A DNA stretch of 64,000 nt from the NCBI GenBank assembly GCA_030390025.1, contig CM059431.1:120902001-120966000 (forward strand), read 5' to 3'. Both the position numbers and the translations under genes were made by a program. Below are positions 36,440 to 52,432 of the stretch, piece by piece. The DNA is from Squalus acanthias. Its lineage: Eukaryota. Within the stretch, counting starts at the first letter, position 1; each line of letters starts with the position of its first letter. The notes below the pieces were generated by a model, which was not told the DNA's origin, did no database searches, and was given only the letters and a program-made list of their open reading frames with translations.

Positions 36440-38210
36440 TTTGGACTGTTTTTTTTAATTTTATTGAAATGGTGGCTTGCTGCAATAGATGTGAAACGTT
36501 TTTTAAGTGTGTAGGGAGTGCTGCTGGATGCTTGCAAGGACTCGGATGGTAAATGAAGGCTTTTGAGAAGACAGAACATGCTGCGAATACTCAGCAGGTC
36601 ACGCAGCATCCGTGGAGAGAGAAACAGAGTACACATCTCAGGTCAACATGCTGCCTGACCAACTGAGTATTTCCAGCATTTTATGCTGTCAATTCACATT
36701 GACAGCATCTGTTTGCAGAGGGAAGAGGAAGACACAGAAGAGGAGGAAGCCGAAGAGGAATCAGACGGAAGAATGCATCCCAGACAGCCCCCTTGTGGCT
36801 GGGTTATCCGGGATGGAATCACCTGCCTGCGGTCCCACTGGCTGGGCAGGCTGCCTCTTCTTGTTGACCCACTGGCTGGGCAGGCTGCATTTCTTGGGTG
36901 TGTGAATGAGAAAGGCACAAGGGTGGAGTTGGGCTGACAGGAGGGCAGGAAAGCAAGAGGTGCATGCCAGAAGGGGGATAACGTACGAGGATACCCGCAT
37001 CTTGTATCCTTTCAGCCCCGCCGCTGGCCAAGGGCTCAACCATGCCCCTGCCAAGAATGGCCTGCATCGTCTCCTCCAAGGGGGTGAGGTGAGGCTAGGA
37101 ATGGGAGATGTGCCTTGTGATTGGTGTAGATTGTTGGTAGGTTAGTGATTGGGGGTTGTGCATTGAGCAGTGTGTGAGGCTCGTGTTGCAGTTGGTAAGA
37201 GACGGCTTTTGAAGATGCATTCACTGACCTTGACCAGTGGTCTGAGGTCAAGAAGCTTCTTTGGGCACTGGAGACAGGTGGTGGGGCAACACTACTGGCA
37301 GTGACAGCCTTGGTGATCTGGTCCCACATCATTCTTTCTGGAGAGCCTCCTGGCCCCTGTGGGTAGAGGGCCGCTCTTGCAGTGTTGACCTCTGCACAAA
37401 GCTGGAGTGCTGCATGTGAGACCTTCGGTGCCCCTTCCCTGGCTTGCTGAGGCATTTGTGTTAGTGCTGAGGCAGTTTTCCCATTTGTTGAGGTTGGGAA
37501 GTTTTTGGATGGGAAACCCAGAAGTAAGGGTTTCCTGGCTGTTCTGCAGAATTTAACTGCAGGGCGTCTTTTACATTTTTTCAGTAGGTGTCCTGGCTGT
37601 CTGTTGGGCGGGAAAGCAGCCGGGGAGTGACTGGCAGGCAAGTAGGAGATCCCGGGGGGGCTGGGGGGGATTGGGGGGAGGTGAGGAGTGTCGGAGATCG
37701 TGGGGGTGGGGGTAGTCAGAGATCGCAGGGGGTCAGAGATCGGGGGCTTCGGGGAGACAGAGAACAGGTTGGGGAGTCGGAGATCGAGTGTGGGGCGGGA
37801 GTCGGAGATCGAGGGGTGGTGGTGGAGGGGGAGTTGGAGATCGTGCAGGGAGAGTCGTAAATCTGGGGTTGTGTAAAGAGGTTAACTCATTGGACCGAGT
37901 GGAAACACTCCTGCTCCTCCTGGCCCACAAGCAGTGCTGTAAATGCACTTACCTCATGGATCTGGCCCTTCGCGCATCCTTTTACCACCCTGGTTTCCCA
38001 ATAAAAAAGCCTGTTAAAATAGAGGCACACAGCTTCCACTGACTGACTCGCATCCTGAGAGCGGATTGGTGGCCTACCCCCTGGCCCACCTTCCTTAAAA
38101 CTGGAAATGAGTGAGATTGAGGCGAGTTGGGGTCGTGTTTGAGATTTTTAAAAATTTACTTCCCTCCCACCCACAACCCACCCATCCTTGGTGTTAAACC
38201 TACCCACATG
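36440..38210 (-). mobile_element. Harbinger element remnant with Myb/SANT-like ORF and short GGAGATCG repeat
   Basis: Peptide APKVSHAALQL...MMWDQITKAVTASS; similar to 28480-29530. Confidence 0.6.
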
Positions 38211-38363: not shown

Positions 38364-40011
38364 TGTAAGGGATTCTGACCCTGCGTGTCTCGCAGCCTGT
38401 GAGATTCACGCGGCTCTGTGCAGCCTGTATGTCAGTGCGGGTCTAGGCCTTGTTGCCTGTTCTGGTCTCCAGCCAGTCTGGGAACACTAGACACACCTGT
38501 GAGTGGTTCGAATCACTCGCCCTTACGGTTCTAGACACTGGACTTAGATGCGAGAGCAGTAATGGAGATGAAACTCATGTAGACTCGGTTGAATGGTACG
38601 AAATGGAAAATCTTTATTGCATGATACTTAAGATTATGAAATACATGTCATAAGCACAGATTAATGACAGTACAATCTTACAAGCAGTTATATAGTCGAT
38701 CTTAGGGAAACGAGGAACGAACGGCACATAGTAAATAGGGGCACACATTACAAATATCCTTAATCCTTAAACCCTCCCCTATCAATATCTATCCTAAACT
38801 AGATTCGTAGGATTTCGAGACTCATGCTCACCACTCGTGATAACTCGGAGAAATTCCGAATAGCTGATCGGATGTTTTTCACCGCAGCACCCACGTGTCG
38901 GTCAGGAGATCTCCTGGTCCCACTTGTTTACTTGCTTCTGCTGCTCCGGCTAGCAGGCTGGAACGTCTGCTGTGATGAAGACCTGTGTTGGTTGGTTTAA
39001 CAGGTACTTTTCGAGCACAGTTGTCAATATCCTCGATACGATATGTTTCCTTGCAAGTTCGAAGAAGTCTTCCTGGCAAGGAAAACTTGGCTAATTCGAC
39101 CTACAGGCGCGGTCGGGATTTACTGACCGTGGCGATGGATATGGTCTTCCTCTCTTCTCATCTCATCTCATCTCATCTCATCTCATCTCGGGCCTTTGGT
39201 TCCGCTGCCAGTTACCAACATAGGTCTTCGTTACGCGACACGAGGTAGATCCGAACGGATCAGAAAGTTCAACAGTCCTTTTCAAAGAGGCAACAGGCAA
39301 GCAGGAGCCCAACTACGAGTACACAGGAGCAGCCACGAGGTTACGAATAAGAGCACAGGAGCAGCCACGATGATAAGAAAAAGATGGACGGTTTGGAGCC
39401 TGCAATTATAGTGCAAAATCTTCCGTTTCCCGCCCAACTATAATGTCCATTCTTTTGTTTAGGGTCTGGCGCTCAAATGTCTTGTATGGGTGATCTCCGT
39501 TCTTAATGGGTTTCGGGGCTACTCGTAAATGTCTGAGTACCTGTTAATATTTCTCCCATTGTTAAATCGGTCGGTGTTCTCCCTGGAGGGGTTGTGGGGC
39601 TTCCAAGTGTTTTGTATAACTACCTGCTAACGGCTCTCTCATCGTAGAGTCGTTGGGATTTTACATATTAATGTCTTTTGGATGGGCCCTTGATTACTCG
39701 GTACAATAGCTTTCATTTGTACCTGGGAGACCGATTTCAGTATTTATGTGTATACTGCAAACCCATAATGTCTCGTGTATTATCTTCACTGTGCTGAATC
39801 TTAATCGATCTTGCACAAATGTTTATTGGAACGCCATCTTGTCTGCCTGTTGAAAAGTCTAGAATGTTCTGTCACGAGGTGCGGCGGCCATTTTACAGGC
39901 TGCTTGTGTCCACTTTAAACCTGGCAGCATTCTGCTGAAATAAAAGCTGTTTGAACGAAACTCTGTGTTTTCTCCTTATTAATAAAATCGCGATATATTG
40001 CGAATTCTACA
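38364..40011 (-). repeat. 3' LTR (1648 bp)
   Basis: Differs from the other LTR at only 2 positions I could see (38753 A / 46485 G; 39097 C / 46829 T). Preceded on minus by a purine tract. Confidence 0.97.
38613..38618 (-). terminator. Candidate polyadenylation signal AATAAA in 3' LTR
   Basis: Plus strand tttatt, about 250 nt from the LTR end. Confidence 0.5.
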
Positions 40012-40022
40012 GTCCCTCCTGT
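40012..40022 (-). promoter_or_regulatory. Polypurine tract (plus-strand primer)
   Basis: Minus strand ACAGGAGGGAC lies immediately before the TGT of the 3' LTR. Confidence 0.7.
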
Positions 40023-40464
40023 TGATGCGAATAACTCCGCTTATCGTATCAAAAATCATAGTGGTGAGCAATATTATCTCGATTTCTCTCCGAATCCAGC
40101 AAATTAATCCCATAAATTTTAACCTAGCTAGGGTCTCTGTGTCGTCCTTATTTCCCAAGAAAATTACATTTTATATCACCGTAGGCATTATTTGCCCTTA
40201 AACTTACACCACTTGTTTTCCTTCCCGGCGTAACCAGGCCGATGTCTCTCGTATCACCTGTATATTCATCTTTTATTCAGGGAAAGGAAAAACAAAACTC
40301 AAAACCAAAACAATCAATTCTAACTGTAACACCATCACCAAAATAATCAACACCAACTCTTAAAACATGTCGAGTTCCCAACGTATTTACAATCTCTGAA
40401 AAATCATGATCGAGTACAAACTTCCGCGACGCACGTGGCGAGCGGGAGTGACGCCATTTTCCGA

Positions 40465-42816
40465 TTACACGGTGCTTTCATCGTGCACGCGCACGTAACG
40501 TTCTCGCCACTCTCCCGTGTTTTCATGCTTGGTGAGGCGCTTGTCTCTTTTACAATGTACGACCAATAGGTACACTACAATAAAAACTTGGCATACGACT
40601 AAAATGTGGGAGGCTATTCTGATCCATGAAGGCACTTCAATATTAGTGAACAGATTCCACCACGGTGGAACTACTATATCCAAAATGTCTGTTCCTATTT
40701 CGACAGTTTTCTGCTCTAATGTGTAAAAATGTTTCTGTGACACCGCGACGGCTTTCAGAAGCTTGGTGAGGTGTACAGGGAGAGGGGGAATGAGGTATCC
40801 GAAATGCGCGACGAATCGCTGCAAGTCGGTGAAATTCTCTTTTACTGTGAGATGAACAGTGGATGGTTCAGGGATTGGGATAATTCGCTGTTGTGCTACT
40901 TGAACTTCCGCCCTGGGTTTGAAACAGAAACTGCTGTCACTCACCGGACACCAGCTACGGTTTCCATGCTGGTAGTGTTGTGCTGCAGTGGTAACACAAT
41001 ATGTTCCACCCCCGATGTATGCTACCTGCGGAGGCACATGATCTTGTGCCATTGCCTCCATGGTGCAATTCATGGACTTGGCGCCAGCCGTTCTGAACCC
41101 GCACTGTGGTGTTAAAAAGGCATTCAAGTGCTGGGGACACAGTATTATGTGTGCTGCCCTGCCACGACAACCAGAGAGATCTGTACCTGTCATCGTTTGC
41201 TCCCAGCGGATGACGTAAGGTGGAACCGCTGCATAACGAATGTGGGCTCCCCCCTGAATGACACCAATGTTCTCTACCCGATACACCGGGGCGGGCTTTG
41301 CTGTGTCGCCCAAAACCGGCATGCGTAATACTATTCCCATAATAGTATGGTTTGAACGTCCGCAGTCCACGGGGACTGGGTAAGCTTCTGAAGCTAGCCT
41401 GAGCTGGCACGGACTTAATGCGTTCTGAAAAGGGTGGAGCGCCCGCAGGTGTTTGTTATTTATCCAGGACGGAACCAAACCTTGTTTTAAATCCTCCAAA
41501 TTACTGCGGCCCTCGCCCAGTAACCACGCCCCGTAAAGCACGCACACCTCGTTCTGCGCAGCTTGATCGGATGCATTCCGATCTTCCCTAATCAGGGCAT
41601 TTACCGTCTTTGCATGTTTCTCCAACTCTGCTATAATTTCCTTTAAATGGAGAGTCATGGCTTGGTCCTCGTGTAAACCCGACCCTACCACTTTATTCTC
41701 ATCTGTTAGAATGTCTTTTAATTGTGTCTTTAAACCATTAATCTGGGTCTGCAGCTCCACACTGTCTAGAGCGTTGACCACAGATGTACCCGTGTTAAAA
41801 GCGGTGAACGCATCGTTCACCAAACCCCTTCTTTGCCTCCCTGCTTGATTCAAAACTTCCTGTGGTGCGGTGTACAAACTTGTTTTATCAATTTCCGCGA
41901 AATCGAATTCGTAAAATTGTCTGAACATCTTGGTCAACAGGACCTGGTACAACTGTTCCGTCTTTTTGGGGCACCACTCTGGTAACCGCACCTCGGTGAG
42001 ATTTAAAATCACCGAGGCCACCGCGTAATGTACCCCCTGAAATAGTATCTGGTCTGTGGGGACCAGTACCAAACCATTCCCGGGTCCCTTACTAGTTTTA
42101 GGGCACCCTTCTTCCTCAGCTAGAACCACCGGAATCGTGGGCGGGGCTTTGCGTGGGCGCGTAATGAGCTCAGTGGCATTTACTGGGATCGGGGAGAATG
42201 GGGCTCCGCACCCCCTGGTGCTCGCATCCCACCTCATCCCCTGTCCGTTATCCTGCCATTGATTAATGAAAAATATGGAGATGCCTTTGGGGCAAACGTA
42301 CTTTGACCCCCACATACATACATAAATTCCCTCATCCGGTTCCCACCATTTGTCCCAACAGACTTTCACTTGTCCGTTTGTCCCCGTAATTGTCCGATGG
42401 GTATTATTACCCAGTCGTTCCCACTCGACCGAAGAGTTCCTCATAGTTTTGCTCAGCTTTCGCAGCCACCACCATCGGCTCAATGGGACCTTCCCACTAC
42501 AAGTCAAACAAATCCGTTTGCCGACGGTGACGCTGATCCTGGGTGCGATGATCCTTACTTTGGGGCACAGTAAAGAAGTCTCTTTGTAGGCAAACCCCGA
42601 TGTGCTAGAATACTCCGTTGAGTTCGTTCCCAGCCATCCTGGCCACCTTCCCTTGTGGAAATAGGTGCTGGTCTCCTCTGCCTCCCGTCTTCCGGTCCCA
42701 TCCACCGCGATGGGGGCCGTGTCCCCGGAACATCCAAACACCACGACATCCTTGGTGCGGCCTCGATAGGCCAATCCACATCCGATTGCCACGAGCAATA
42801 CTAGAATTCGTTCCAT
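40465..42816 (-). CDS. env: Envelope glycoprotein (783 aa from likely start MERILVLL): signal peptide, Ig-like domain, furin site RQRR, fusion peptide and heptad repeat, Cys-rich region, TM anchor
   Basis: Hydrophobic signal MERILVLLVAIGCGLA. RQRR|GLVND at 41827-41838. About 10 N-x-S/T sequons. TM IASHILVVCQVFIVVYLLVV and a YVRV tail motif. The frame is open further upstream to 42999. Confidence 0.9.
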   Translation of the reverse strand: MERILVLLVAIGCGLAYRGRTKDVVVFGCSGDTAPIAVDGTGRREAEETSTYFHKGRWPGWLGTNSTEYSSTSGFAYKETSLLCPKVRIIAPRISVTVGKRICLTCSGKVPLSRWWWLRKLSKTMRNSSVEWERLGNNTHRTITGTNGQVKVCWDKWWEPDEGIYVCMWGSKYVCPKGISIFFINQWQDNGQGMRWDASTRGCGAPFSPIPVNATELITRPRKAPPTIPVVLAEEEGCPKTSKGPGNGLVLVPTDQILFQGVHYAVASVILNLTEVRLPEWCPKKTEQLYQVLLTKMFRQFYEFDFAEIDKTSLYTAPQEVLNQAGRQRRGLVNDAFTAFNTGTSVVNALDSVELQTQINGLKTQLKDILTDENKVVGSGLHEDQAMTLHLKEIIAELEKHAKTVNALIREDRNASDQAAQNEVCVLYGAWLLGEGRSNLEDLKQGLVPSWINNKHLRALHPFQNALSPCQLRLASEAYPVPVDCGRSNHTIMGIVLRMPVLGDTAKPAPVYRVENIGVIQGGAHIRYAAVPPYVIRWEQTMTGTDLSGCRGRAAHIILCPQHLNAFLTPQCGFRTAGAKSMNCTMEAMAQDHVPPQVAYIGGGTYCVTTAAQHYQHGNRSWCPVSDSSFCFKPRAEVQVAQQRIIPIPEPSTVHLTVKENFTDLQRFVAHFGYLIPPLPVHLTKLLKAVAVSQKHFYTLEQKTVEIGTDILDIVVPPWWNLFTNIEVPSWIRIASHILVVCQVFIVVYLLVVHCKRDKRLTKHENTGEWRERYVRVHDESTV

Positions 42817-42828
42817 CCTTCCTTGGTT

Positions 42829-42856
42829 CCTGTGATCAGATAGAATGAGGTAGCCA
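42829..42856 (-). promoter_or_regulatory. Candidate splice acceptor for env mRNA
   Basis: Minus strand ctacctcattctatctgatcacag|gaacc ends 13 nt before the env signal-peptide ATG. Confidence 0.5.
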
Positions 42857-43105
42857 GCCTCGCAAGAGTCTCTGGCTTTTGTGAAGGGTGAGCGGGTCCC
42901 CTGACCTCGCCTCACGTAAACTTCCACGTTCGCTGTATAAACTTTAACTAAACCTAAATTTACAGCTCCCATCATTTTATCGTTTTCTGTTAAAAACACT
43001 ACAAACTTAACCTTATTAAAAAACTATAAACTTAACCTTGAACTATTAACTTAAAACTTAAAAACTAATAACTTTACAGTGCCGCCCGTTCTCAGGGCGG
43101 CCCCT

Positions 43106-44266
43106 TTAAATTCTGAGAAGGCTGCTGCGAGCTCTTCCCGACGGTGGGAGGGCACTGACCCTTCCCTCTGATCTGCCGCAGCCTGTTGCTGCACTGACCC
43201 TTCCCTCTGATCTGCCGCAGCCTGTTGCTGCTGCGATGTGGCCGGCCTGTATCTGGGTTATCTTAACCTTAACTCTACGCCTTGGGGCAGTCTGGGGACA
43301 TGACCACATCCTCCTGGGCTGGGGTTCTCTACTTGACCTACGGGGAGTTGCTATGGGCGGGGGTTCCGTGACGGACGGACCGGGTTCCGAGACTTCCATC
43401 GGGATGACCTGGGGTTCCACCACAGTCGCTGGCTCCGCCTCCGCTGACTCCGCCTCCCTAACCTCGGGGCTTGCAGTTTGTGGCTCCGCCCTGCTCGGCC
43501 CAGCAGGCGGCCCTTCACTCGTGATCTCTGCCTCCCCCAAGGACGGGACGTTCAAAGCGGGCGGCCACATCTCTGGGAGCCACACCGGTACTCTCTGTGC
43601 TCCCATAGCGGCTGGCCCTGCCTCCCCTAGCTCCTCCCTCCTGTCTTCGGGACCTGCAGCTCGTGTGTCCACCCTGTGTGGATCTCTACCTGCAGCCCCC
43701 GTCCCCTCCATATCGTAAAAGGGACCGTTCCTCCGAAACCACCCGTCGTCATCACTATCCTCATCTGCACTATCCTCATCTGACCCGGGTACCCTGAATT
43801 CTTCCTCATCTAACCCCCAATTCCAGAAAAACGCTGCATGATCGTCCGGGATGTCCCTTCCCCTGATGCAAGCTGCTATGCCTGCCTGTGTGCCTTGTGG
43901 TCCTACCTGGGGCTGTGCTTTCCCACTGGCGGGATTTACCCCTGTAGTTTTCCCTTGCGCACCTGGCTGGTACAGTTTGCATTGGTTTACATCCTCATAC
44001 TCCCGGCTTTTGGCTACCCTGTAGACTGCTTTTATCTCACTAAGCTGCGCTTCTAGCCTGAGCACGTCTAACTTTCCCATTGATCGGGCGTTCTCCTCCC
44101 GCAGGGCCTGCTCTCTAAGCTGCCCTTCCAGCCCATCTATTTTCCCTATTAAGCGGGCGTTCTCCTCCCGCAAGGCCTGCTCTTTTAACCTGGCCTCCTC
44201 ACCGCAGACCCCCTCCTGTGCGTGTCTTTTAAAAGGACACAGGTAGGCAGGCTGCGTGGGCTCTAG
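43106..44266 (-). CDS. ORF X: unknown ~386-codon frame in phase with the NC ORF after its TGA (coiled coil, acidic tract, Pro/Glu-rich tail)
   Basis: The 31 sense codons between the TGA at 44267-44269 and the listed ORF start at 44173 are open and in frame. No ATG near its 5' end. No DTG/DSG, YxDD or HHCC motifs. Confidence 0.65.
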   Translation of the reverse strand, partial: LEPTQPAYLCPFKRHAQEGVCGEEARLKEQALREENARLIGKIDGLEGQLREQALREENARSMGKLDVLRLEAQLSEIKAVYRVAKSREYEDVNQCKLYQPGAQGKTTGVNPASGKAQPQVGPQGTQAGIAACIRGRDIPDDHAAFFWNWGLDEEEFRVPGSDEDSADEDSDDDGWFRRNGPFYDMEGTGAAGRDPHRVDTRAAGPEDRREELGEAGPAAMGAQRVPVWLPEMWPPALNVPSLGEAEITSEGPPAGPSRAEPQTASPEVREAESAEAEPATVVEPQVIPMEVSEPGPSVTEPPPIATPRRSSREPQPRRMWSCPQTAPRRRVKVKITQIQAGHIAAATGCGRSEGRVSAATGCGRSEGRVSALPPSGRARSSLLRI

Positions 44267-44626
44267 TCATTGGGTACTATTAGACGGTCCTGCGGCACCT
44301 ACGGGGCCGGTTGCGACCGCCACCTGTCCACGTGCACTCAAGATTAGATTGCGCATGGCTCCTAACACTACTTCGACGTCGTCGGGAGGGGTGGGTGCCT
44401 TAGCTTCCTTAGCCGGGACAGGCGCCTGGGCTCGGACCGCGGGATTTTTATCCTTGGAATCCTTCCAAGGGTTCCTGCAATGCTTGCGCCAGTGCCCTGT
44501 CTTCCCACACCCGTAACAAGCATTACCTGCCTGTGGGGCGCGATTACCCTCCTGATGCCACTCTCTTTGATACGGGGCTGCGGGTCGTACCTCATGTACT
44601 CTTCCCTTAAGGGGACGTGTTGCCAT
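44267..44626 (-). CDS. gag: Gag C-terminal nucleocapsid portion with CCHC zinc knuckle, in +1 frame relative to upstream gag
   Basis: CYGCGKTGHWRKHC (C-X2-C-X4-H-X4-C) at 44477-44518. Overlaps the end of the gag ORF by 20 nt. Confidence 0.88.
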   Translation of the reverse strand: MATRPLKGRVHEVRPAAPYQREWHQEGNRAPQAGNACYGCGKTGHWRKHCRNPWKDSKDKNPAVRAQAPVPAKEAKAPTPPDDVEVVLGAMRNLILSARGQVAVATGPVGAAGPSNSTQ

Positions 44627-46091
44627 ACCCCTTATATTGCGATATCCTAACGTGAGTCAAGACCGACTCTTCCGTAATGTTGGGGTCATTGGGAATGTTG
44701 GGGTCATTGGGATCAAACCATGCTTTTGCCTGCTCTCTGACGGCTGGTAAACTGTTGGCTATTATGCACCTAAGCCAATGAGTTAAAGCTAAGCCTTCCA
44801 CATCTTCGCGCTCGGGCGCACCTGGACAGCTGCGCTCATATACTGGCCACAGCCTGTCGGCAAAAACCTTCGGGGGTTCTCCCTCCATCTGCACTGTCTG
44901 TCCCACTCTAGCAAACGGACCTTCATCGTTCGCCCCCAACACTTCCAGGACCTCATTCTTTAATTCCTCATAACTCTTGGTTCCCCTCTTGCTCTCGCCT
45001 GAGAGACACTGAAGGACCGAGCTGTCTAATGAGAACAGCAGCATTTTTGCTGTTTCCCCATCATCGCAGCCGTTAATGGCTGCGGCTTGCTCAACTTCTC
45101 TGAAATGTACGGAAGGGTCGTCTGACTCGGTCAGCTTCCGTACGTGATTTATCATAGCTCTCAGCTGATGTGAACTGTGAGGCAGCACCAGCTGTCCGAG
45201 GAGATCCCCCGGCTCTTCCCCACCGTTTCTGCTTGGACCCCTTTTAATACCCGTTACTGGATACAACGGTCCCTTTCCTACTTCTTTTTCAATGGGCTCT
45301 TTCGTTTCTTCCATTGCTTCCTCCCTTACCCAGGTTTCCGAATAGCTGGGTGGCGCGGAGGGCGCAGTGGCTACTACTTCTTCTGCTTTACTTGGTGGGG
45401 ATTTTTTAAACTTCTCACTTGCTAGCGGCTGGTGTGCTGACGGACTGATCAGGCACACCATGCCGTTCGCTTTGTTTACGGCCTTCTTGAGGTGCTCTAT
45501 CTCCCTTTGGCAGGCGCTATGGTCGGCTCCCTCAAACTTATCCTCAAGGGCCAACTTATATGCCGCCCTAACCCCCGTTAAGCTCTCTTCTTGAGTTCTT
45601 ATCTGGGCAGCTTGGCGGTTACATCTTTCCTTTAATCTGCTCTCATTCAACTTCGCCTCAGTGACCTGGCACTCGAGATAATCTATCCTTGTTTTAAGGT
45701 GACTGGAGACTGCCTGGCTTTCTTGGTGCAACTCATTTAAATTCTTAATGAGCACCTCCCCTCCAGAAACCTTCTCATCCATTTCTCCCTCTAAATGACT
45801 GATTCGAGCTACTAGCGCTGTAATGGTCTGGTTTGAAATCTGAACCTGCCTTTTGTAACACATAAGCCAGACTGCTTTCTCAAGTGTCTTTCTATGTTCT
45901 TTACTATCTGTCCACCTTTCGGCTGCCTCTAGCGGGCTTTTATCCGCTAACAATTCACTTATCCACTTCTTAGTTAGATTAACCTTTCCGAACACATAAT
46001 CTGCTATCTTTTCCTGCATAACATTTCGTACAGTCATTCCAAAGTCTAACACACTACCCTCTCGCTGCCAGTGTCCTGCCGCGGTCGCCAT
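44607..46091 (-). CDS. gag: Gag (494 aa; N-terminal domain, long coiled coil, PSAPPSY late-domain motif, capsid-like helical region)
   Basis: First ORF after the PBS, with its ATG overlapping the PBS. Heptad-rich segment; APSAPPSY at 45342-45362; a CCHC knuckle follows in the adjacent frame. Confidence 0.85.
   Translation of the reverse strand: MATAAGHWQREGSVLDFGMTVRNVMQEKIADYVFGKVNLTKKWISELLADKSPLEAAERWTDSKEHRKTLEKAVWLMCYKRQVQISNQTITALVARISHLEGEMDEKVSGGEVLIKNLNELHQESQAVSSHLKTRIDYLECQVTEAKLNESRLKERCNRQAAQIRTQEESLTGVRAAYKLALEDKFEGADHSACQREIEHLKKAVNKANGMVCLISPSAHQPLASEKFKKSPPSKAEEVVATAPSAPPSYSETWVREEAMEETKEPIEKEVGKGPLYPVTGIKRGPSRNGGEEPGDLLGQLVLPHSSHQLRAMINHVRKLTESDDPSVHFREVEQAAAINGCDDGETAKMLLFSLDSSVLQCLSGESKRGTKSYEELKNEVLEVLGANDEGPFARVGQTVQMEGEPPKVFADRLWPVYERSCPGAPEREDVEGLALTHWLRCIIANSLPAVREQAKAWFDPNDPNIPNDPNITEESVLTHVRISQYKGYGNTSP
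46073..46090 (-). promoter_or_regulatory. Primer-binding site complementary to tRNA-Arg(TCG) 3' end
   Basis: Minus strand TGGCGACCGCGGCAGGAC lies 5 nt after the 5' LTR. It is the complement of ...GTCCTGCCGCGGTCG-CCA, which I recall as the 3' end of vertebrate tRNA-Arg-TCG. Confidence 0.88.
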
Positions 46092-46095
46092 TTTC

Positions 46096-47743
46096 TGTAA
46101 GGGATTCTGACCCTGCGTGTCTCGCAGCCTGTGAGATTCACGCGGCTCTGTGCAGCCTGTATGTCAGTGCGGGTCTAGGCCTTGTTGCCTGTTCTGGTCT
46201 CCAGCCAGTCTGGGAACACTAGACACACCTGTGAGTGGTTCGAATCACTCGCCCTTACGGTTCTAGACACTGGACTTAGATGCGAGAGCAGTAATGGAGA
46301 TGAAACTCATGTAGACTCGGTTGAATGGTACGAAATGGAAAATCTTTATTGCATGATACTTAAGATTATGAAATACATGTCATAAGCACAGATTAATGAC
46401 AGTACAATCTTACAAGCAGTTATATAGTCGATCTTAGGGAAACGAGGAACGAACGGCACATAGTAAATAGGGGCACACATTACAGATATCCTTAATCCTT
46501 AAACCCTCCCCTATCAATATCTATCCTAAACTAGATTCGTAGGATTTCGAGACTCATGCTCACCACTCGTGATAACTCGGAGAAATTCCGAATAGCTGAT
46601 CGGATGTTTTTCACCGCAGCACCCACGTGTCGGTCAGGAGATCTCCTGGTCCCACTTGTTTACTTGCTTCTGCTGCTCCGGCTAGCAGGCTGGAACGTCT
46701 GCTGTGATGAAGACCTGTGTTGGTTGGTTTAACAGGTACTTTTCGAGCACAGTTGTCAATATCCTCGATACGATATGTTTCCTTGCAAGTTCGAAGAAGT
46801 CTTCCTGGCAAGGAAAACTTGGCTAATTTGACCTACAGGCGCGGTCGGGATTTACTGACCGTGGCGATGGATATGGTCTTCCTCTCTTCTCATCTCATCT
46901 CATCTCATCTCATCTCATCTCGGGCCTTTGGTTCCGCTGCCAGTTACCAACATAGGTCTTCGTTACGCGACACGAGGTAGATCCGAACGGATCAGAAAGT
47001 TCAACAGTCCTTTTCAAAGAGGCAACAGGCAAGCAGGAGCCCAACTACGAGTACACAGGAGCAGCCACGAGGTTACGAATAAGAGCACAGGAGCAGCCAC
47101 GATGATAAGAAAAAGATGGACGGTTTGGAGCCTGCAATTATAGTGCAAAATCTTCCGTTTCCCGCCCAACTATAATGTCCATTCTTTTGTTTAGGGTCTG
47201 GCGCTCAAATGTCTTGTATGGGTGATCTCCGTTCTTAATGGGTTTCGGGGCTACTCGTAAATGTCTGAGTACCTGTTAATATTTCTCCCATTGTTAAATC
47301 GGTCGGTGTTCTCCCTGGAGGGGTTGTGGGGCTTCCAAGTGTTTTGTATAACTACCTGCTAACGGCTCTCTCATCGTAGAGTCGTTGGGATTTTACATAT
47401 TAATGTCTTTTGGATGGGCCCTTGATTACTCGGTACAATAGCTTTCATTTGTACCTGGGAGACCGATTTCAGTATTTATGTGTATACTGCAAACCCATAA
47501 TGTCTCGTGTATTATCTTCACTGTGCTGAATCTTAATCGATCTTGCACAAATGTTTATTGGAACGCCATCTTGTCTGCCTGTTGAAAAGTCTAGAATGTT
47601 CTGTCACGAGGTGCGGCGGCCATTTTACAGGCTGCTTGTGTCCACTTTAAACCTGGCAGCATTCTGCTGAAATAAAAGCTGTTTGAACGAAACTCTGTGT
47701 TTTCTCCTTATTAATAAAATCGCGATATATTGCGAATTCTACA
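46096..47743 (-). repeat. 5' LTR (1648 bp)
   Basis: Direct repeat of 38364-40011 at offset 7732. On minus it reads TGTAGAA...CTTACA and is followed by GAAAA and the PBS. Confidence 0.97.
47130..47170 (-). promoter_or_regulatory. Candidate LTR promoter (GC/E2F-like box TGGGCGGGAAA plus TATAAT)
   Basis: Minus strand gttgggcgggaaacgg...gcactataattgca, followed about 25 nt later by a pyrimidine-rich start-like sequence. A second TATA candidate, TATATAA, lies near 46420. Confidence 0.4.
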
Positions 47744-48470
47744 CCTTCTAATATCTTCTTTGGTTGGTCACCAATTTTGTTATGGTTACGCCTTTGCAAA
47801 GCACATTGGGCCATTTTTCTATCTTAACGGCGCTATATAAATGCGAGGTGTTCTTGCTCTGGCGTGGTGGGAGGCTGGTTTGAGTACATAATTCACCACA
47901 TGGTAAACGAATGATTTCAGCTGTACTGCTGCAGAAGTATGCACATATCCAGAGAAGAGCACAATCTATCAATTGTTAAAAATCCAGGGACTTGTACATG
48001 GCTGGAGTCAAGAGTTCAACCATTTGTGCCAGCTGTGAAAATACTAATTCATGCTGCAATTAAGATAAATTGAGAGAAGTACTGAGAATTAAGACAGCAT
48101 AGAAAATTGGCACTTGAAAATACTTCCCAGTGATCTCTTGAACAAGGCCAACTGCAGCAAGCTGACCATCTGCTCCCATCAGTGGAATTGCTGCTGTGGA
48201 AGTTAAATTCTAATGGGGCACGAAGAGAAGGCTGTTCTCATCCTATCTGTAACTATCTCTTGTGAAAAATTAACCTCCCGCCCCCATGCCTTGAAATAGT
48301 GATTCCAGCAGAATGGCCCTAATATTTACTCAGGACGTGAAGAGAGCAGGCGGGGTGGGGCTGGGGGAAGATTTCCAGACAGGAAACCCAGAAGTAAAGA
48401 GTTTCACGGACATCCTGCTGAACTTTTTCAGAGATCAGGGTGGTGTGGGAGCTGGCAAACAGTGATAGAT

Positions 48471-51400
48471 GGAGTCGGAGATCGGGGGTGGAGGGGGAGA
48501 TCGGGGGTGAGTCGGAGATGGAGGGGGGATTCGGAGATCGAGGGGGGATTCGGAGACCGAGGGGGGAGTCGGAGATCGCGGGGGAGTCGGAGATCGGGGG
48601 GGAGTCGGAGATCGAGGGTGGCAGTCGGAGATCGAGGGTGGAGTCGGAGATCGAGGGTGGAGTCGGAGATCGAGGGTGGTGTCGGAGATCGAGGGTGGAG
48701 TCGGAGATCGATGGTGGAGTCGGAGATCGAGGGGGTGTCGGAGATCGGGGGGGTGTCAGAGAACGGGTAGGAGGGGGAGATCGGGGGTGGAGGGTGAGAT
48801 CGAGGGGCAGTCGGAGATCGGGGACAGTTGGAGATCGAGGGGCAGTCGGAGATCGGGGGAGGGGAGATCGAGGGGGGAGTCGGAGATCGAGGGGGGAGTC
48901 AGAGATCGGGGTGGAGGGGAGATCGAGGGGGGAGTCGGAGATCGAGGGGGGAGTCGGAGATCGAGGGGAGGAGTCGGAGATCGAGGCGGGAGTCGGAGAT
49001 CAGGGGGGAGTCGGAGATCGAGGGGGGAGATCGAGGGGGGTGTCGGAGATCGAGGGTGTAGTCGGAGATCGATGGTGGAGTCGAAGATCGAGGGGGGTGT
49101 CGGAGATCGGGGGGGTGTCAGAGATCGGGTAGGAGGGGGAGATCGAGGGTGAGATCGAGGGGCAGTCGGAGATCGAGGGGCAGTCGGAGATCGGGGACAG
49201 TTGGAGATCGAGGGGCAGTCGGAGATCGGGGGGAGGGGAGATCGCGGGGGGAGTCGGAGATCGAGGGTGGAGGGGGTGATCGAGGGTGGAGGGGGTGATC
49301 GAGGGGGGAGGGGGAGATCGAGGGGGGAGGGGGAGATCGTGGGGGGAGTCGGAGATCGGGGGGCTGTCGGAGATCGAGGGGAGGAGTCGGAGATCGAGTG
49401 GGAGAGTCGGAGATTGAGGGAGGAGTCGGAGATCGAGGGTGGAGTCGGAGATCGGGGGGGAGGGAGAGATCGGGTGGCTGTCGGATATCGAGGGTGGAAT
49501 CGGAGATCGAGGGGGGAGTTGGAGATCGAGGGGGGAGAGGGAGATCGGGGAGATTCGGAGATCGAGGGGAGAGGGGGAGATCGAGGGTGGAGTCGGAGAT
49601 CGGGGGGGGAGGGAGAGATCGGGTGGCTGTCGGATATCGAGGGTGGAATCGGAGATCGAGGGGGGAGTTGGAGATCGAGGGGGGAGAGGGAGATCGGGGA
49701 GATTCGGAGATCGAGGGGAGATCGGGGGGAGTCGGAGATCAAGGGGGGAGTCGGAGATCGAGGGGGGAGGGGGAGATCAAGGGGGGAAGGGGAGATCGGG
49801 GGGAAGTCGGAGATCGAGGGGAGATCGGGGGAAGTCGGAGATCAAGGGGGGAGTCGGAGATCGAGGGGGGAGGGGGAGATCGAGGGGGGAGTCGGAGATC
49901 GAGGGGGGAGGGGGAGATTGAGGGGGGAGGGGGAGATCGAGGGGGGAGTCGGAGACCGAGCGGGGAATCGGAGATCGAGGGGGGAGGGGGAGATCGAGGG
50001 GGAGGGGCAGATCGAGGGGGGAGTCGGAGATCGAGGGGGGAGTCGGAGATCGAGGGGGGAGTCGGAAAACGAGGGGTGAGGGGGAGATCGGGGGCGAGTT
50101 GGAGATTGAGGGGCGAGTCGGAGATTGAGGGGCGAGTCGGAGATCGAGGGGGGAGTCGGAGATCGAGGGTGGAGTCGGAGATTGAGGGGGGGAGTCGGAG
50201 ATCGAGGGTGGAGTCAGAGATCGAGGGGGGGAGTCGGAGATCGGGGGGGAATCGGAGATCGAGGGGGGGAGTCGGAGATCGGGGGGGAGGGAGAAATCGG
50301 GTGGCTGTCGGAGATTGAGGGTGGAATCGGAGATCGAGGGGGGTGTTGGAGATCGAGGGGGGAGGGGGAGATCGGGGGGCATCGGAGATCAAGGGGGGAG
50401 GGGGAGATCGAGGGTGGAGTCGGAGATCAGGGAGGAGGGGGAGATCGGGGGCTGTCGGAGATCGAGGGTGGAATCGGAGATCGAGGGGGGAGTTGGAGAT
50501 CGAGGGGGGAGAGGGAGATCGGGGGGATTCGGAGATCGAGGGGGGAGGGGGAGATCGGGGGGAGGGGAGATCGGGGGGAGTCGGAGATCGAGGGGGGAGG
50601 GGGAGATTGCGGGGGGTGAATCGGAGATCGAGGGGGGAAGGGGAGATAGAGGGGGGAGTCGGAGATTGAGGGGGGAGTCGGAGATCGAGGGGAGGAGTTG
50701 GAGATCGAGGGGGGAGGGGGAGATCGAGGATGGAGTCGGAGATCGAGGGGGGAGGGGGAGATCGAGGATGGAGTCGGAGATCGAGGGGGAAGGGGAGATC
50801 GAGGGGGGAGTCGGAGATCGAGGGGGGAGTCGGAGATCGAAGGGAGGAGTCGGAGATCGAGGGGGGGAGTCGGAGATTGAGGTGGGAGGCTGAGATCAAG
50901 GGGGGAGTCAGAGATTGGGGGCGAGTCGGAGATCGGGGGTGAGGGGGAGATCGAGGGGGGAGGGGTAGATTGGGGGGGAGTCGGAAATCGAGGGGGGAGG
51001 GGGAAATCGGGGGGGAGTCGGAGATCAAAGGGGGAGTCGGAGATCGAGGGGGGAGGGGGAGATCGAGGGAAGTCGGAGATCGGGGGGGAGTCAGAGATCT
51101 GGGGGGAGTCGGAGATCGAGGGGGGGAGTCGGAGATCGAGGGGGGGAGTCGGAGATCGAGGGGCGAGTCGGAGATCGAGGGGGGGAGTCGGAGATCGAGG
51201 GTGGAGGGGGAGATCGAGGGGAGTCGGAGATCGAGGGGTGATGGGGAGATCGAGGGCGGAGTTGGAGATCGGGGGGGAGTCGGAGATCGAGGGGGAAGTC
51301 GAAGATCGAGGGGGGAGGGGGAGATCGAGGGGGGAGGGGGAGATCGAGGGGGGAAGGGGAGATCGAGGGGGGAGTCGGAGGTCGAGGGGGCAGTCGGAGA

Positions 51401-52186
51401 TCGAGTGGGGAGTCGGAGATCGGGCGGGGGAGTCGGAGATTGGGGGGGCAGTCGGAGATCGGGGGGGAGTCGGAGATCGGGGGGAGAGGGGGAGATCAAG
51501 GGGGAGTCGGAGATTGAGGGGGAGTCGGAGATTGAGGGGGAGTCGGAGATCGAGGGGGAGTCGGAGATCGGGGGGAGTCGGAGATCGGGGGGGGAGTTGG
51601 AGATCGGGGACGGAGTCGGAGATCGAGGGGGGAGTCGGAGATCGGGGTTTGTCGGAGATCGAGGGGGTGTCGGAGATTTGTGGGCTGTCGGAGATCGGGG
51701 GGGAGTCGGAGATCGGGGGTGGAGGGGGAGTCGGAGATCGAGGGGGGAGTCGGAGATTTAGGGGGTTTGTCGGAGATCGAGGGGGGAGTCGGAGATCGAG
51801 GGGGGAGTCAGAGATCGAGGGGGGAGTCGGAGATAGTGGGGGGGAGTCGGAGATCGAGGGGGGAGTCGGAGATCGGGGTTTGTCGGAGATCGAGGGGGTG
51901 TCGGAGATTTGTGGGGTGTCGGAGATCGGGGGGGAGTCGGAGATCGTGGGTGGAGGGGGAGTCGGAGATCGAGGGGGGAGTCGGAGATTTAGGGGGTTTG
52001 TCGGAGATCGAGGTGGGAGTCGGAGATCGAGGGGGGAGTCAGAGATCGAGGGGGGAGTCGGAGATAGTGGGGGGGAGTCGGAGATCGAGGGGGGAGTCGG
52101 AGATAGTGGGGGGAGTCGGAGATCGAGGGGGGAGTCGGAGATTGGAGGGAAGTCGGAGATTGTGGGCGGAGTCGGAGATCGGGGGG
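48471..52186 (+). repeat. G-rich minisatellite, unit ~GGAGTCGGAGATCGAGGGG (variable G runs)
   Basis: Roughly 200 copies of the GAGATCG core; strongly strand-asymmetric. Confidence 0.97.
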
Positions 52187-52432
52187 TAGACAGTGTTCAG
52201 AGGTGGTTGGAAGAGTCGGAGATTGTGGACGGTAGGTGGAGTTCAGCTGGTTGTGCGAGGTGGGGGTGGGTCAACCAAACACAGGATGTGTTAAGAGGTT
52301 GGCTTTTTGAGCTTCAGGAAACACTCCCGCTCCTCCTGCCCCATAAGCTACTTAACTCATCGAGCTGGGCTTTCTTCTTTTACCTGCTGTGCTTCCCAAG
52401 CCCCGGGAAACCCGGCCTCCTTGGGTTAAAAA

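Follow-up and report, generated by a model that had tools for sequence, protein, structure and literature searches.

The window, the whole stretch of 64,000 nt of Squalus acanthias DNA that was analysed, contains a minus-strand provirus of 9,380 nt with the order LTR, primer-binding site (PBS), gag, ORF X, env-like ORF, polypurine tract (PPT) and LTR (Table 1). The 4-bp target-site duplication CCTT lies on either side of it. With its paired TG...CA LTRs, duplication, PBS and PPT, the element is an endogenous retrovirus (ERV). The provirus is young: its LTRs differ at 2 of 1,648 sites and its siblings are 98-99% identical. Pfam found no protease, reverse transcriptase (RT) or integrase domain in the provirus or in ORF X. 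Named relatives of the proteins of the provirus come from sharks and skates; Gag has 25 relatives, and the named ones are from sharks and one frog.

The PBS was read directly from the sequence, and we take it to be of the tRNA-Arg type. The Gag relatives P0006, P0009 and P0015 have the same starting residues as the gag whose ATG overlaps the TGG of the PBS. In the window, gag is broken by a frameshift between capsid and nucleocapsid (NC) near 44.66 kb. The frameshift is private, being found in none of 29 siblings, and most genomic gag matches form a single frame of 626-627 codons. Because this private frameshift breaks its gag, the window copy cannot make a Gag-X protein, and such a fusion could come only from siblings with an unbroken gag.

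Upstream of the env-like ORF there are a U-rich spacer and a candidate splice acceptor. The relatives of this ORF are skate and sawshark records. Its N-terminal part (42975-42200, minus strand) may contain an Ig-like domain (Pfam Ig_3, E = 0.49; weak Ig matches in the PDB), and its single-sequence structure model has a pLDDT of 33. A 166-codon frame at 40955-41455 (minus strand) overlaps env in another frame and has no meaningful Pfam match. Outside the provirus, a G-rich minisatellite with a period of about 19 nt occupies 48400-52200, and a short related array is located at 37600-37860 on the other side; the insertion point seems to be near a satellite tract. Further away, at 1637-1841, a near-perfect inverted repeat with two 102-nt arms 1 nt apart is built from a dispersed repeat.

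Table 1. Positions of the proviral features in the window.
Feature	Position	Strand	Remarks
5' LTR	46096..47743	-	1,648 nt, TG...CA; 99.88% identity to 3' LTR, 2 mismatches
Primer-binding site	46073..46090	-	starts TGG; overlaps first gag ATG (46091-46089)
gag, N-terminal coiled coil and capsid part	44607..46091	-	broken from NC near 44.66 kb
Nucleocapsid frame	44270..44656	-	one CCHC knuckle; Pfam zf-CCHC E = 0.016, below curated cut-off
gag stop	44261..44272	-	type II leaky context CAA-TGA-CTA-GAG; TGA at 44269-44267; ancestral gag-pol junction
ORF X codons 1-10	44236..44266	-	first ten Pol codons (protease N-terminal strand); LEPTQPAYLC vs LEPAQPVYLC in pol-bearing family A
Near-palindrome	44222..44240	-	26 nt after stop; spans 5' deletion junction
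ORF X codons 11-91	43990..44235	-	246-nt insert, Gag-type coiled coil; internal 20-codon repeat
ORF X codons 92-386	43106..43989	-	integrase C-terminal tail; ends at natural pol stop
env-like ORF	40465..42975	-	RQRR furin-type site, C-terminal hydrophobic stretch
3' LTR	38364..40011	-	polypurine tract (about 40012-40025) precedes LTR

The gag-pol junction and the make-up of ORF X

The first-pass annotation had described an NC frame ending in CAA-TGA-CTA-GAG that stays open beyond the stop, and this was confirmed on the minus strand, where the same frame is open for 386 codons to 43106. TGACTAG is not a chance context here, because it accounts for 3 of the 2,247 TGA triplets in the window yet is kept in all 30 of the closest copies. 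The suggestion that the stop is the ancestral gag-pol recoding site was borne out as well: an in-frame TGA precedes the protease in 18 of 18 pol-bearing loci, which were picked by gag similarity (one, L059, was counted as pol-bearing by its translation). Among these autonomous relatives, the sequence before the protease is TGACTAG in nine, TGACTGG in eight and TGACTGA in one. With the stop codon left free, TGA was found at the junction in 33 of 34 gag-selected loci from three Gag families, the junction of the remaining locus (L063) not being located, and C follows UGA in all 33. Exact matches in the genome number 237 for the family A pol-type context and 798 for the X-type context; the first 100 matches with a free stop codon were all TGA for the former, and 98 TGA, one TAA and one AGA for the latter. 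The context UGA-CUA-G occurs in families A, X and Y and in part of family C. CUG is found in part of family C and in family B, where the junction reads TGA-CTG-GAG with a purine-rich upstream context. In one pol-less copy (C2 near 83.66 Mb), a single case, a sense codon replaces TGA and gives an open frame of 949 codons.

In the two copies in which Pol was read end to end (L065 and L066), Pfam places PR-RT-tether-RNase H-IN(-SH3) after the TGA in frame, private breaks aside, and the autonomous form has the dual RNase H order of Pol. The sequence at the junction matches a type II readthrough signal, in which UGA is followed by CUA or CGG and the downstream ORF is in frame. The gammaretroviral type III signal (UAG-G with an H-type pseudoknot) was ruled out, UGA being the stop at all 33 located junctions. 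Because the N-terminal strand of the protease directly follows the stop, Pol is likely to be reached by readthrough, and the junction sequences indicate that the parent family very probably makes Gag-Pol via readthrough of UGA-CUR-G at a level of a few percent. According to the accessible part of a recent review, UGACUAG alone gives at least about 1.3% readthrough and structure is not required (PMC13517186). For Pol, the signal employed in this lineage appears to be the UGA-CUA-G of alphaviruses and vertebrate genes. In the same part of that review, UGA-CUA among animal viruses is given for alphaviruses and PSIV only (PMC13517186), and the retroviral readthrough entries in the available review tables include no UGA-CUA (PMC13517186; PMC3542737). 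Its use for Pol would extend the known range of retroviral recoding signals.

The near-palindrome downstream of the stop had been proposed to form a stimulatory hairpin. Its distance of 26 nt was correct, but a role as the ancestral stimulator was rejected: it lies across the deletion junction, none of 7 pol-bearing family A loci has it, and it barely pairs, folding at -3.5 kcal/mol alone and having a pairing probability of 0.01 within 120 nt of context. Among 63,981 windows of 19 nt, 111 have an outer stem of 5 bp that is just as perfect. The 106-nt region after the stop folds at z = -1.31, and for 15 loci, folds of three lengths from 75 to 150 nt past the stop range from z = +1.4 to -2.6, the lowest being X-type at 150 nt. 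Among these 15 loci, no conserved downstream structure common to the families was found, and the pairing partners differ between families. Several minimum-energy folds contain a helix starting about 17 nt past the stop; we make no claim for it, its partners shifting with folding window and family.

ORF X itself had been taken for a novel protein of unknown origin. Comparison with pol-bearing copies refutes this and resolves it into the start of Pol, a Gag-type coiled coil and the C-terminal tail of integrase. Protease-type contigs diverge from the window at 44235, directly after the first ten codons. Against a profile built from 12 Gag coiled-coil segments, with bounds set after the motif had been noticed, the insert that follows reaches 20.9 bits, a score attained by none of 1,000 plain and none of 1,000 heptad-preserving shuffles. 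Of its three frames, only the one in use is open, the others having 8 and 6 stops, and a helix is predicted for ORF X residues 21-95 (pLDDT 78-96). From 43989 through the same stop into env, the DNA is 90-95% identical to 3 of 3 integrase-bearing family A loci, and the match begins after the SH3 domain of the pol-bearing copies. The tail of ORF X is of low complexity and predicted to be disordered (pLDDT mostly below 50), and it contains the basic motif PRRS-R-PQPR. ORF X has its first ATG at codon 63. The two junction patterns are 3,654 nt apart in six of nine pol-bearing places and 3,643-3,655 nt apart in the other three, compared with 276 nt in the X-type form. These comparisons show that about 3.6 kb of pol was replaced by the 246-nt coiled-coil fragment, with Pol codons 1-10 joined in frame to a 295-codon integrase tail.

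The origin of ORF X emerged from genome comparison alone. Against Pfam, ORF X gave a single sub-threshold coiled-coil match. Residues 1-200 had no match at E up to 1 among 5.8 billion proteins of 212-676 aa, a range that excludes Pol-length relatives, and the best score for residues 8-100 in the ESM Atlas was 0.86, with no usable lead. A donor for the insert was not found by DNA in loci L041-L068, the window gag or the rest of the window. The variant-junction pattern, followed as a donor lead, gave only X-type point variants in the 3 loci read out of 17.

Pol-less families, frame maintenance and tail exchange

The 5'-junction pattern of the X-type form has 1,059 matches in the 3.7-Gb assembly, corresponding to about 1,000 copies of this pol-less form. 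The 3'-junction pattern has 242 matches, far below that number, and polymorphism of the 3' junction explains part of the gap. The integrase-type junction has 1,577 matches, which is not a count of complete elements. Contigs from three sequencing runs with different organism codes, none recorded as RNA, bridge the X-type 5' junction, and in three of four runs protease-type contigs leave at the same base. Copies at a spacing of about 7.7-8 kb were seen at C5 146.88 Mb, C8 77.50 Mb and C1 143.66 Mb and on C3295 and C264, as expected of tandem provirus arrays with common LTRs.

Three Gag families were distinguished, A (that of the window), B and C, the last two being 45% and 38% identical to the A query. 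The pol-bearing partner has an NC 94-98% identical to that of the window, a protease after the TGA, and the same tail and env. To judge from the sequences, the window element derives from a cartilaginous-fish ERV by deletion of pol; it is young and non-autonomous, with the order gag, leaky UGA, ORF X and env. A second and independent pol-less family, Y, was found at 12 loci (L041-L045, L054-L056, L058, L060, L062 and L064) on B and C gag backgrounds, and X and Y make up the whole sample of pol-less families. What remains of Pol in family Y is half a protease (with the DTG motif), the terminal part of RNase H, some pieces of integrase and the tail. This Pol-remnant cassette has diverged much less than the adjoining B- and C-type gags, suggesting that the cassette may move between families. 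Most family Y copies are already broken by private mutations.

The frame is largely kept in siblings of the window copy: ORF X is full length in 22 of 30, and the other eight are truncated, each at a different place. In a set of 34 X-type copies, ORF X has two shared indels, both of which preserve the frame, and six frameshifts, each of them private; in the spacer behind ORF X, the shared indels are mostly of 1-2 nt. The 20-codon repeat of the insert and a variant 69 nt longer (pattern coordinates on C1) are also in frame. None of the deletions in family Y, which measure 18, about 2,082, 9, 831, 141 and another 63 nt, disrupts the frame. Counting the large rearrangements (about 2,082, 831, 141 and 63 nt in Y, and the replacement in X), five of five are frame-keeping, with a probability of 0.004 under a 1-in-3 null; that null would be an underestimate if in-frame microhomologies were favoured during template switching. 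Among the sampled copies, neither X nor Y showed a shared stop, a weak result with only about 2 expected per family.

In the dN/dS comparison, shared amino-acid variation in ORF X was near neutral. Shared dN/dS is 1.25 in ORF X vs 0.16 in gag (29 copies, L022 being left out for its poorly aligned gag; Fisher p = 4e-8), and 0.79 in the Y remnant vs 0.18 in gag. Singleton dN/dS in ORF X is 0.49 in frame vs 1.18 and 1.06 in the two other frames, which would hint at protein-level constraint. Codons 1-122 contain few variants (shared N4, S0) because the 30 copies were picked by similarity to 43900-44500.

The tail has been exchanged with pol-bearing copies. That of L072 is 0.7% from pol-bearing L070, nearer than to any of the 33 other X-type copies, and in 4 of 34 X-type copies the tail is nearer to L070 than to most X-type copies. 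The tail of pol-bearing L065 (1197-2030, minus strand) contains the INQCKL motif three times, one of them within a Y-type junction; in this case a tail appears to have passed from a pol-less family to a helper. Since tails are traded with helpers, the pol-less family cannot by itself be credited with conservation of the tail. Families with tails only 30-40% identical still have short tail motifs in common, and tail length varies.

Affinities with known elements

The best PDB matches of Pol are MLV RT (208 bits), foamy virus (184) and Ty3 (148). In a midpoint-rooted tree of 43 rows of search matches with few named references, the RT falls within the retroviral clade, not Ty3/Gypsy (100/99 for the clade with gamma/epsilon-type proteins). 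It groups with frog and coelacanth proteins (about 50% identity; support 81/86), outside the gamma/epsilon-type cluster. The top match is a Pyxicephalus protein (52%), and Pyxicephalus carries a relative of XtERV-S. A class III, SnRV-related position of the element is plausible. Lokiretrovirus identity was dropped: the element has no paramyxovirus F-like Env (no PF00523 match at E up to 1), and its RT lies apart from a teleost long-ORF clade that is presumably lokiretroviral, in a tree without a named lokiretrovirus reference.

As described in the available text on XtERV-S (PMC8278194), that class III ERV from African frogs has gag and pol in one frame with a TGA between them that is predicted to be suppressed, an env, and coexisting internally deleted copies. 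It differs by its GQR motif, Ser primer site, 5-bp duplication and predicted dUTPase after integrase (PMC8278194), whereas a CCHC knuckle, a duplication of 4 bp and a disordered tail characterise the shark element. With this knuckle and duplication, and no dUTPase match in the Pol C-terminus, it was not placed in the XtERV-S group. MoMLV and WDSV (gamma-/epsilonretroviral), SSSV, ZFERV and RMEV likewise have a stop in frame, after the Gag knuckle and before the protease DTG, through which alone Pol can be reached, according to the accessible parts of two reviews (PMC13517186; PMC3542737). There the stop contexts are given as UAG-G, which is type III and has a pseudoknot in MoMLV, or as UGAAGA, UGACGA and UGAAGU. 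The shark families instead have UGA-CUA-G or UGA-CUG-G, with no conserved downstream structure found. The in-frame UGA at gag-pol itself is given for SSSV, ZFERV and RMEV (PMC3542737) and for XtERV-S (PMC8278194) in the accessible text of these sources. The alphaviruses SINV and ONNV (UGA-CUA) and vertebrate UGA-CUAG genes, as listed in the available part of the review (PMC13517186), have a context identical to that of families A, X, Y and part of C. Compared with alphavirus type II signals, the shark setting is retroviral, no common extended stem-loop, a conditional feature for UGA-CUA, was shown, and family B and part of C have CUG.

Snakehead-related ERVs (clade Huo; CmiERV lineage I of the elephant shark) also occur in cartilaginous fish, include class III ERVs and, in SnRV, have a gag-pol stop, as far as the accessible text goes (PMC6001957; PMC4422223). 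The SnRV stop context is different, UAGGGC; the position in the RT tree is compatible, the comparison being made without a named SnRV or CmiERV sequence. Loss of pol with gag under purifying selection, helper dependence and inter-family recombination are described, in the portions available, for zebrafish Bhikhari Bik-1/2 and chicken ENS-1 (10.1101/2024.03.25.586437) and for Athila (PMC2410132). Bik-2 differs in having neither pol nor env (10.1101/2024.03.25.586437), and the portions available for Bik-1/2, ENS-1 and Athila describe no retained leaky stop with an in-frame Pol remnant. We found no published description of this shark family, or of a leaky stop kept in a pol-less ERV, in the literature outside subscription journals, Repbase and Dfam.

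Possible reasons for keeping the frame

Gag-pol readthrough and pol-less ERV derivatives are both already known, and the earlier headline of a novel protein packaged in place of Pol fails. We favour, with moderate confidence, the explanation that the stop still leaks and that translation as far as the natural pol stop is the feature retained, plausibly since readthrough blunts nonsense-mediated decay (NMD). Copies with an unbroken gag would still leak because their stop context is unchanged; they probably make a minor Gag-X product and use the enzymes of the parent in trans. In the least certain step, translation through the frame to the natural pol stop would be maintained, not the protein sequence of ORF X. 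The most likely reason would be that occasional readthrough protects the unspliced RNA from NMD, and recombination with the helper would also keep refreshing the tail. In the accessible parts of earlier studies, less than 1% readthrough can inhibit NMD (PMC9661723) and readthrough in MoMLV prevents it (PMC4917968); the role of NMD on unspliced gag-pol RNA is called unresolved in the available text of a 2026 review (PMC13517186). Readthrough to the ORF X stop clears 1.16 kb of the more than 4.2 kb of 3' untranslated RNA, about a quarter, so the protection would be partial. It also counts against frame maintenance that the tail indels may stem from pol-bearing copies. About 1,000 young copies in which readthrough yields no enzyme represent a natural experiment on whether readthrough serves protein or RNA stability.

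It is fairly unlikely that the UGA context and the open frame are a neutral vestige, handed down since a recent deletion and renewed through recombination with pol-bearing copies, with no selection on readthrough in the pol-less family. The five frame-keeping rearrangements in two independent families speak against this, as does an insert that is open solely in the used frame and whose repeat and longer variant are in frame. The youth of the family, its shared dN/dS near 1 and the exchange of tails with pol-bearing copies are what such a vestige would look like, and the two non-TGA codons among 100 X-type matches fit decay after insertion.

We also regard it as rather doubtful that X is a functional accessory protein, acting as Gag-X or freed by the helper protease at the natural NC/PR boundary, and giving an edge over the helper. 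One may speculate that the coiled coil anchors X in the particle and that the basic motif serves nuclear import or chromatin tethering. The insert is confidently predicted as a Gag-type helix in frame, but family Y succeeds without a coiled coil. Short motifs in the tail persist across families and the whole tail is retained in both pol-less families; it is mostly disordered and variable in length, however, and since the env splice acceptor follows closely downstream, RNA signals may be the reason for its retention. The in-frame singleton dN/dS of 0.49 argues for a protein function and the shared value of 1.25 against it. The excess of exact X-type over family A pol-type stop contexts (798 vs 237) is consistent with an edge over the helper, and in the frog ERV XtERV-S the post-integrase slot holds a predicted dUTPase, according to the available text (PMC8278194). 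A related proposal, that pol-less satellites were selected to keep the leaky UGA and so deliver the integrase tail into particles without enzymes, with X rebuilt as a chimera, is unlikely. If it were true, the tail would represent an accessory module that evolves fast, has gone unrecognised and passes between helpers and satellites by recombination.

Finally, it is very improbable that splicing, as for foamy-virus pol, or internal initiation reaches the downstream frame in place of readthrough: an AG lies within four bases of the stop and a Met occurs about 24 codons past it in most pol-bearing shark copies, but this Met, which from retropepsin anatomy we take to sit inside the protease fold, after the conserved N-terminal strand, is absent in the coelacanth relative P0034 and lost in ORF X, and the purine-rich family B context and the constant UGA-C argue for readthrough.
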